A DNA stretch of 64,000 nt, taken from the NCBI RefSeq assembly GCF_000026545.1, contig NC_011601.1, one strand, 5' to 3'. Position numbers: made by a program. Below are positions 6,001-9,000 of this stretch, piece after piece (the first letter of the stretch is position 1; the number at the start of each line of letters is the position of its first letter). This DNA comes from Escherichia coli O127:H6 str. E2348/69 (lineage in GTDB: Bacteria; Pseudomonadota; Gammaproteobacteria; Enterobacterales; Enterobacteriaceae).

Positions 6001-9000
6001 CACTTCTGCGCCTTGCGGGGTGACCAGCACAACATCTTCGATGCGCACGCCCCCTTGCCCTGGCAAATAAATCCCCGGCTCCACGGTCAGTAACATGCCT
6101 GGCTGTAGCGTCGTGGTGTCCCGCGGTGAAAAACGCGGATCTTCATGAACTTCAATGCCGATAGCATGACCGGTGTTATGACCGAAATAGTCGCCATAAC
6201 CTGCTGCTGTAATCACCCGGCGCGCGGCATCGTCAACCTGCTGGCAGCGCACGCCGGGGCGAATTACAGAGATTGCCGCGAGCTGTGCCTGCAGGACAAT
6301 CTGATAGACGTTAAACAGCGGGTGAGATTCGGCGCTCACCCCTTCGCCATTCACCAGCAAGGTGCGCGTCATATCAGAGCAGTAGCCCTGATAGAGCGCA
6401 CCGAAATCGAGAGTGACAAACTCGCCCGCTGTAACAATCTTGTCGCTGGCTTTGCCGTGCGGCAGCGCCCCACGCCAGCCGCTGGCGACAATGGTATCGA
6501 AAGAGGCTTTTTCTGCGCCCTGCTGGCGCATAAACCACTCCAGTTCAGCGGCTATCTCGCGCTCGCTCATCCCCGCCTGAATAAAGCGGCGAATATGCTC
6601 AGCACCGCGATCGGCAATCCCACAGGCGAGGCGGATTTTCTCCACCTCCTCTGGCGTTTTGATTTGCCGCAACACATCCGGCGTGGCGCTAACCAGTTTC
6701 GCATTGAGTTCGGACTGCCAGCGGTGCGCGGTTTCCCAACTCACCTGCTGGCCTTCAAAACCGAGCGTTTGCAACTGCTCATCGGCAATGATTTGTCTGA
6801 CGATGGTGGCAAGCGTGTGCATCGCGTCGAGCAAATGCAGCTGGTAACCTTGCGTGCGGGCTTCTACATCCGCGTAATAGCGCGAATCCACCAGAATGTG
6901 CGCACTTTCACGGCTAATCACCACATAACCTGATCCGGTGGAGATCCCCAGATGCGGCTGTTTGTTCTGCCGTGAGGAGAGAAGCACCGCATCCAGTTGT
7001 TGTGCCTTAAGCCAGTCACGCAGCGAAGCGAGTAATGTCATCAGGATTGTCCTTCTTACAGGCTATCGATTAACAATTTACCTTTGCGGAACATCATCAG
7101 ACGCAAGAACACCACCATCAGCGCAGTAATGATTGCTCCCAGCGCAATCCCCGCCATATAGACACCCAGATTAGTGACCAGCGGCCACGCCCAGATAGCG
7201 GATTCCGGGAACCATTGCACTGCGCCCAGCCAGACTGCGGCGGTTGAGCCGACAATCGCGCCAACCATATAGGACGGAATGGCGGTGATAGGGCTTTCCA
7301 GTGCAAACGGAATCGCACCCTCACTGATCCCCATAAAGGCAAGGAACATCGCGGTCTTACCCTGCGGATAAAGTTGAGCGTTGAACAGACGTTTGCCGGT
7401 TAAACGACGGTCAATAATGGTTGCCAGACCCAGACCAATCGGCGGAATAACGATAGCGATAGAACGTGCGGTGACCGGTAATACGTGGTCAGTGGTAAAG
7501 CTGAAGGCAACGAAACCTGCCGCTTTGTTGATCGGGCCACCAAGGTCGATTGCTGTCGCCGCGGCGATCCCCATTGCGTACATCAGCGCGCCCTTCTCAC
7601 CTGCTGCGGTTAGCACGGTACGGATACCGCCGTTGATCCAGCCACCAAAGGGGGTGATGACGTAGTACATCGCCAGCATGACAAAAATGGCGGAAAGAAT
7701 CGGTAGCAAAAATGTGGTTTTGAACGCTAACAGGAAATCCGGTAACTGGATTTTCTGGTTCATCCACTTCACGAGGTAACCCGCAACGATAGATATAATC
7801 AGCGCACCAATGAAGGTGGACGGCACCGGCGAAGAGGTCGCCCATTGCATAATGCTGGGATCGAAGTTCAGCAGTTGCGTCGGCTGGGTAGACATCAAGC
7901 CGCCGATAAAACCAGCCGGGAACGCCAGTTTGCCACCGATAGAGTTCGCCACAAAAGCAGCAAACATCGGAATGGCAAAACCAAACAACACGCCACCGAA
8001 GGACTGCGACAGCCAGGCAAATTTAAGTAAGGAGAGGTCGAAACCGGAGAATTTCCCGCTATTAAGAGCATCCATGATGCCGATATCAGCAGGAATTTTA
8101 AGCCAGCTATAAGCAATCAGCTGACTGAAAGCGAGGATCACACCGCCCATAATTAAGGTCGGCACCATGCGTGAAATCCCTGACATCACATGCTGCGGGA
8201 GTTCACCCCAGAAGCTGGATTTAGAGGCCTGCGGATTCTTAACTGCCGCTGCCGCACCGGATGCGCCATGCACAACGGTTGCACTGCGTTTTTTAATGGC
8301 CATAACAATTATCCCTGTCGAATATTACTGTTGTTCAGAGGCAATCATCTCTTCGATTTCTTTGATGATTCCTGCAGCGTTTTTAATTGCGTCCTGCAAA
8401 GTGATTTCATAAACGTCGCGTGATTCGAAACGCTCGTTATCTTCCGGGGTAACTGCCACGGAGTGGATGATGATGGCCGCTTCGGCGATATCCTACGCCG
8501 TCAGGCGATTCTGGATACCGTCCGCGCCCTGGGTTTCAATTTTCACTTCATAACCGGCTTCTACCGCCGCTTCTTCCAGCGCCTGAGCGGCCATAAAAGT
8601 GTGAGCCAGGCCCATTGGGCAGGCACATAAGGCAATCAGTTTCTTACTCATCGTTAATTCCTCGTTCAGTGATAGTTGACGAGTGAAATTATGAACGTGC
8701 AAAACAAATCGCCGTTACCAGACAAATAATGCATTTACTGGAGAATTAATCCCGCTGTACGGAAGTGTGACGCAGGTCGGCCTTGTGAGGGGACACAAAG
8801 AAAAATTTAATTAACTGTATGATTTAAAAGATTATCGGGAGAGTTACCTCCCGATATAACAGGAAGGATTTAGAGAATGTGACCTAAGGTCTGGCGTAAA
8901 TGTGCACCGGAACCGAGAAGACCCGGATTGTCATGGACGATGAGATATACCGGAATATCATGGACATATTCCTTAAAGCGCCCTTTATCTTCAAATGCGG

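Follow-up and report, generated by a model that had tools for sequence, protein, structure and literature searches.

In Escherichia coli O127:H6 strain E2348/69, the gene fryB is most probably a true pseudogene (probability about 0.93). According to this reading, one C→T transition turned Gln 53 (CAG) into an amber codon; the mutation would have a single origin and be fixed in the clone to which the strain belongs, and the neighbouring genes are intact. The pseudogene is already on record through the RefSeq annotation and is in this respect an ordinary finding. In the following, the window is the whole stretch of 64,000 nucleotides of E2348/69 DNA that was analysed, and all positions refer to it unless stated otherwise.

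Reading frame and predicted product of fryB

The features of the fryB locus are listed here with the evidence on which each is based:

8325-8651, minus strand: fryB (ypdH) pseudogene, fructose-like EIIB component of a phosphotransferase system (PTS), 108-codon frame broken at codon 53 (translation, alignment with K-12 FryB, RefSeq)
8493-8495, minus strand: amber codon TAG at codon 53, ancestral codon CAG (Gln) (translation, allele comparison)
8493-8651, minus strand: translatable fryB frame of 52 amino acids plus stop, with the Cys-containing N-terminal loop C9-A-C11-P-M-G-L-A-H-T kept (ORF listing, translation)
8475-8477, minus strand: codon 59 of fryB, GCC (Ala); ACC (Thr) in K-12 and in the nearest complete genomes (allele comparison)
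8658-8663, minus strand: Shine-Dalgarno-like GAGGAA, 6 nt upstream of the fryB ATG (sequence inspection)

The original prediction had described an in-frame amber codon after 52 codons of fryB, followed by a sense frame up to the expected stop, and translation confirmed both the description and its coordinates. The frame begins with the ATG at 8651-8649 and contains 52 sense codons before the TAG; downstream of it, 55 further sense codons follow in the same frame, until the TAA at 8327-8325 is reached. On the plus strand, positions 8493-8495 read CTA, which is TAG at 8495→8493 on the minus strand; the C→T change of the coding strand is consequently a G→A change at plus-strand position 8495.

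If Gln is placed at codon 53, all 108 residues of the translation can be aligned with K-12 FryB (PDB 2KYR) at E = 2.8e-64. Judged by the sequences, this end-to-end alignment is far beyond chance. K-12 FryB (YpdH, b2387), which is annotated as putative fructose-like EIIB component 1, is the orthologue at the same genomic position, and the same residue is found at 106 of the 107 sense codons, the sole difference of the repaired translation being residue 59 (Ala in the window, Thr in K-12). The window gene differs from its orthologue in this residue, in having TAG instead of CAG at codon 53, and in that the full domain could not be produced.

The translation with Gln 53 matches the Pfam family PTS_IIB (PF02302) with 70.8 bits over profile positions 2-90 of 90, where the curated cut-off is 23.6 bits. 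Due to the TAG at codon 53, the frame for the whole PTS_IIB domain is interrupted, and the match of the 52-residue product (42.7 bits) covers profile positions 2-37 of 90 only. Relatives of the full-length translation in the PDB are 2KYR, 5DLE, 2M1Z, 2R4Q, and 4TN5. In the alignment with the fructose-specific IIB domain 5DLE, the residues C11-P-M-G-L-A-H-T fall on its ACPVGVAHT motif; the N-terminal C-P-x-G-x-A-H-T loop of the PTS EIIB family is present in the fryB frame, including the 52-residue piece. From what is known of the family, we take the cysteine of this loop to be the phosphorylated, catalytic residue.

Translation would stop after 52 residues, which keeps the Cys loop and leaves more than half of the PTS_IIB fold of about 100 residues missing. 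Since so much of a single compact domain is missing from the product, we infer that its EIIB activity is lost. For the same reason, the phosphoryl relay, which leads from FryA via FryB to the FryC-bound substrate, should be interrupted where EIIB acts. It could be argued that fryB was instead split into two functional pieces, namely the 52-residue N-terminal peptide with the active-site Cys, which still scores on PTS_IIB, and a 44-residue C-terminal peptide that starts with the GTG of codon 65. Both ORFs are indeed called by some automated annotations (those of assemblies L006, L009, and L011). However, the GTG is not preceded by a Shine-Dalgarno sequence (CGGCCATCATCATCCACTCC), and a Pfam profile search with the 44-residue ORF gave no family match. 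Moreover, the structure 2KYR shows PTS_IIB to be one compact domain, and neither piece would contain residues 53-64. A functional split gene is thus scarcely credible.

Occurrence of the amber codon in public genomes

Of 5426 complete E. coli genomes, three have a fryB that is 100% identical to that of the window, and each of them is EPEC O127:H6 E2348/69 or a derivative. In agreement with this, the 61-mer that contains the TAG was found in three of the 5426 complete genomes and in none outside E2348/69. Identity to the E2348/69 assemblies is 100% over the initial 20 kb of the window as well, compared with 98.8% for the next best complete genome. In the three E2348/69 assemblies, RefSeq marks fryB as 'pseudo, internal stop' (H4J01_RS07495, BQ9544_RS14175, and BQ9550_RS11380). 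LT827011 and LT903847 are based on Illumina resequencing (>100x) of the strain and of an engineered derivative, for which de novo and reference assembly were used (PMC5685641). CP059840.2, the third of the three E2348/69-derived complete genomes, is a separate assembly.

In public assemblies, the exact 52-residue truncated product occurs on 172 contigs, whose sources include E. coli 2362-75 and EHU-series accessions (DEC1-series strains). We take the DEC1 and DEC2 strains and 2362-75 to be O55:H6 EPEC. Seven assemblies, which originate from different projects and isolates (L005-L011), all possess TAG at codon 53 and GCC at codon 59. Their identity to the window is at least 99.96% over 12 kb, and the divergence within the amber clone amounts to at most 4 SNPs per 12 kb.

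A single-base difference such as this TAG is what base-calling errors typically give, and two of the three E2348/69 assemblies are partly reference-guided; a sequencing or assembly error, with CAG as the true codon, therefore had to be considered. It was rejected as the source of the stop, because the base is common to ten assemblies of the clone (the three complete ones derived from E2348/69 plus the seven from other projects and isolates) and the truncated product to 172 contigs. The chance of an error is accordingly negligible, and given the ten assemblies with TAG, reads backing CAG at codon 53 are very unlikely to exist. The stop is best regarded as an inherited character that is fixed in a tight clone; an error and a laboratory mutation of E2348/69 can both be dismissed as its source.

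Origin of the amber allele

The nearest complete genomes and the window differ at two positions of fryB, which are C157T (CAG→TAG) and A175G (ACC→GCC, resulting in T59A). Intact alleles with Gln 53 and Ala 59 were detected on 31 contigs and belong to several backgrounds. In the assemblies L012, L017, and L019, the intact fryB is one base (CAG versus TAG) away from the window, and fryC is identical over 1248 nt. Because this intact haplotype exists, the pseudogene must have been made by a single C→T transition, with T59A being the earlier event. T59A can consequently be classified as a pre-existing polymorphism and not as decay that followed inactivation. The intact Q53/A59 allele (P0009; e.g. 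GCA_033045715.1, L012), whose fryB-fryC haplotype is the same as that of the window save one base, represents the direct ancestral allele.

Two points of the original prediction are covered by these data. A C-to-T change of a Gln codon had been proposed, and CAG is the codon in K-12 and in the nearest alleles. A comparison with fryB alleles of other strains had been suggested, and it gave CAG in all other lineages examined and TAG only in the clone. An intact orthologue thus exists at the same locus in relatives, and the stop is derived from a point mutation, as is characteristic of a nonsense pseudogene. We propose that the mutation arose once, on the intact haplotype that is still extant in other strains, and that it has since become fixed in the tight clone to which E2348/69 belongs.

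The background of the ancestral allele (L012) has CAG at codon 53, and its genes ypdF, ypdE, and fryA belong to another allele class: L012, L017, and L019 differ from the window at 17, 36, and 105 positions in ypdF, ypdE, and fryA, respectively. As fryB and fryC are identical apart from the amber codon whereas ypdF, ypdE, and fryA are divergent, a recombination breakpoint near the fryC/ypdF junction is indicated, which makes the operon a mosaic. For fryA, deep allele classes were observed in general, with a nucleotide divergence of about 4% between several pairs.

Two further explanations were considered and dismissed. A Dcm (CCWGG) deamination hotspot was rejected as the cause of the C→T exchange, as the ancestral context GCGCAGGAT contains no Dcm site. 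In addition, Q53* and T59A, which are 18 nt apart, might be taken for a clone-private sign of relaxed selection. This idea was rejected for two reasons: Ala 59 occurs also in intact alleles of several backgrounds, and two differences in 327 nt are below the background that corresponds to 98.8% identity to the nearest complete genome.

Operon context

The gene order is glk, fryB, fryC, ypdF, ypdE, fryA, with fryB at the head of the run fryB-fryC-ypdF-ypdE-fryA. The neighbouring features are:

8833-8856, minus strand: terminator-like hairpin directly after the glk stop codon (consensus match only)
7056-8303, minus strand: fryC, EIIC component, intact, 415 amino acids (ORF listing, RefSeq)
5956-7041, minus strand: ypdF, aminopeptidase, intact, 361 amino acids (ORF listing, RefSeq)
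4919-5956, minus strand: ypdE, aminopeptidase, intact, 345 amino acids (ORF listing, RefSeq)
2399-4894, minus strand: fryA, multiphosphoryl transfer protein with HPr, EI, and EIIA domains, intact, 831 amino acids, RefSeq label ptsP (translation, Pfam, RefSeq)

The assumption that fryA and fryC are intact was correct; both the 831-residue and the 415-residue protein have ordinary RefSeq protein accessions. fryC possesses a ribosome-binding site of its own (AGGGA), and its start lies 21 nt past the fryB stop. With regard to Rho-dependent polarity, the untranslated stretch of 189 nt downstream of the amber codon, with a C/G ratio of about 1.0, is neither C-rich nor G-poor. The hairpin after glk suggests that fryB may have its own promoter in the spacer at 8652-8832. 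In the K-12 annotation, FryA, FryB, and FryC are labelled 'putative', and the Fry operon is 'cryptic' only as regards its substrate.

A difference within the clone was noticed in yfeO. At position 10525, the window and L008 have ACT (Thr), and the other clone-mates as well as the outgroup L012 have CCT (Pro). According to the distribution of the two codons, Thr is the derived state, and this missense change distinguishes the E2348/69 sub-lineage from the rest of the clone.

Selection on the Fry operon

The amber codon had originally been interpreted as a sign that the cryptic PTS decays. For fryB in the clone, this interpretation holds; as a general trend, it does not. Among 5426 complete E. 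coli genomes, 5418 contain fryB at a coverage of at least 80%. Between lineages, the pN/pS value of fryB is 0 (0 nonsynonymous versus 5 synonymous differences). The corresponding values are 0.04-0.06 for fryC, 0.14-0.18 for ypdF, 0.03-0.09 for ypdE, and 0.03-0.05 for fryA; for comparison, glk gave 0-0.02. The range of 0-0.18 argues for strong purifying selection on the operon between lineages.

Within the amber clone, seven events were counted in the operon, which are five missense, one nonsense, and one synonymous change. Four missense and zero synonymous changes were found in the flanking housekeeping genes. The idea that selection on the other operon genes is relaxed in the clone was rejected, because these flanking genes show a matching missense excess. 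The excess is the usual pattern of very recent polymorphism and not an operon-specific relaxation. Decay of the Fry system as a whole is weakly supported; decay past fryB is possible, but would have barely begun.

Further lesions in the operon were found in one of the clone-mates examined, which is L010 (GCA_900450255.1). In addition to the fryB amber codon, this assembly contains a 1560-bp ISEc13 element in the glk-fryB spacer (4240-5799, corresponding to window position ~8864). The element is inserted at the terminator-like hairpin of glk and is accompanied by a short target duplication. A second nonsense mutation of L010 is fryA Q94* (at 10037, corresponding to window position 4615), and its glk has the two missense changes W71L and C227G. 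The window itself has a copy of ISEc13 (IS4-like) at 41636-43187, between ucpA and cysP, which is 99.9% identical to the element of L010.

Possible readthrough, suppression, and compensation

A premature stop does not abolish function if it is read through, and fryB could still be functional if the amber codon were usefully decoded by the near-cognate tRNA-Gln(CUG) or by a suppressor tRNA encoded elsewhere. Low-level natural readthrough of UAG by near-cognate tRNAs mostly inserts Gln; this is the ancestral residue of codon 53, such that the wild-type protein would be regenerated. Throughout the clone, the 55 codons downstream of the TAG show no change, and most members also have the other operon genes intact, as one would expect of a gene still in use. 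However, the clone is very young, with at most 4 SNPs per 12 kb, and an unchanged downstream half is therefore uninformative about selection. The stop occurs in one clone only and not in divergent lineages, and the clone-mate L010 has acquired ISEc13 upstream of fryB and the stop in fryA.

With respect to suppression, no tRNA with the amber-suppressing anticodon CUA was found in the 64-kb window or at the glnV/glnX cluster of E2348/69, and a supE-type suppressor was rejected for this reason. The Gln tRNA cluster of E2348/69 contains one wild-type tRNA-Gln(CUG) and two tRNA-Gln(UUG). Altogether, useful readthrough is very improbable. Programmed recoding, for which conservation of the stop across divergent lineages would be expected, is argued against by the confinement of the TAG to one clone of at least 99.96% identity. 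A peculiarity of the cluster is the single tRNA-Gln(CUG) of E2348/69 (L024, 18157-18750) as compared to the tandem glnX and glnV of K-12 (L022, 1431-2134); the rest of the cluster is the same.

Paralogous EIIB proteins, for example FrwB and FrwD, might act as substitutes for FryB. We infer that FryB is probably compensated neither by paralogues nor by readthrough.

Possible adaptive loss and other inactivated genes

Loss of FryB need not be the result of drift; it could have been positively selected in the EPEC clone as a pathoadaptive inactivation. This explanation is compatible with the fixation of the amber allele in every clone member examined. Moreover, the operon is under purifying selection in other lineages, so that the loss departs from the norm. 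On the other hand, fixation in a clonal lineage is predicted by hitch-hiking alone. The single origin signals no convergence, as the 61-mer search revealed the fryB stop in no other complete genome, and other pseudogenes in the same 64-kb window (the frameshifted xapR and the truncated eutC) indicate that gene inactivation is commonplace in this strain. We therefore regard positive selection as unlikely, though less so than readthrough. An equally low probability is assigned to the broader notion that the amber allele is no dead end, i.e. that the operon is still used via tRNA-Gln readthrough or via FrwB/FrwD feeding FryC, or that the loss was selected during adaptation to the human small intestine. 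The simplest account would be that the loss of this one accessory transporter component from a pathogen clone was neutral or nearly so.

Several other loci of the window attracted attention. The gene of the xanthosine regulator, xapR (~20496-21394), is a frameshift pseudogene of E2348/69 according to RefSeq. In the region ~59507-64000, eutC is truncated at its 5' end and directly abuts genes for a Mu-like transposase, an AAA ATPase, and a helix-turn-helix protein. Here, where the window ends, a Mu-like element seems to interrupt the ethanolamine-utilisation operon. Between eutR and hemF (~51312-57148), an accessory block encodes a DUF1963 protein, a 1149-residue SNF2-related protein, and two hypothetical proteins. 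K-12 presumably lacks this block at that position; the block could be a small defence or mobile island.

Implications and comparison with known pseudogenes

Beyond the existing annotation, the analysis makes a modest addition: the amber allele is clone-wide and not strain-specific, its one-step ancestor is extant, and the operon shows no specific relaxation of selection. The result carries little weight beyond bookkeeping; users of E2348/69 should treat the Fry PTS as being without its EIIB component. Members of the clone can also be recognised conveniently by the TAG, a single-base marker. Reverting this one base to the exactly known ancestral fryB allele, in an operon whose other genes are intact, would offer a clean way to approach the substrate of the Fry system; this is an opportunity rather than a discovery.

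fryB resembles the classical nonsense pseudogenes of host-adapted E. coli and Shigella: one point mutation struck an accessory gene of which most of the species has an intact copy, and the allele is inherited clonally. It differs from them in that one gene of the operon is struck and little further erosion is seen, which points to a recent event.
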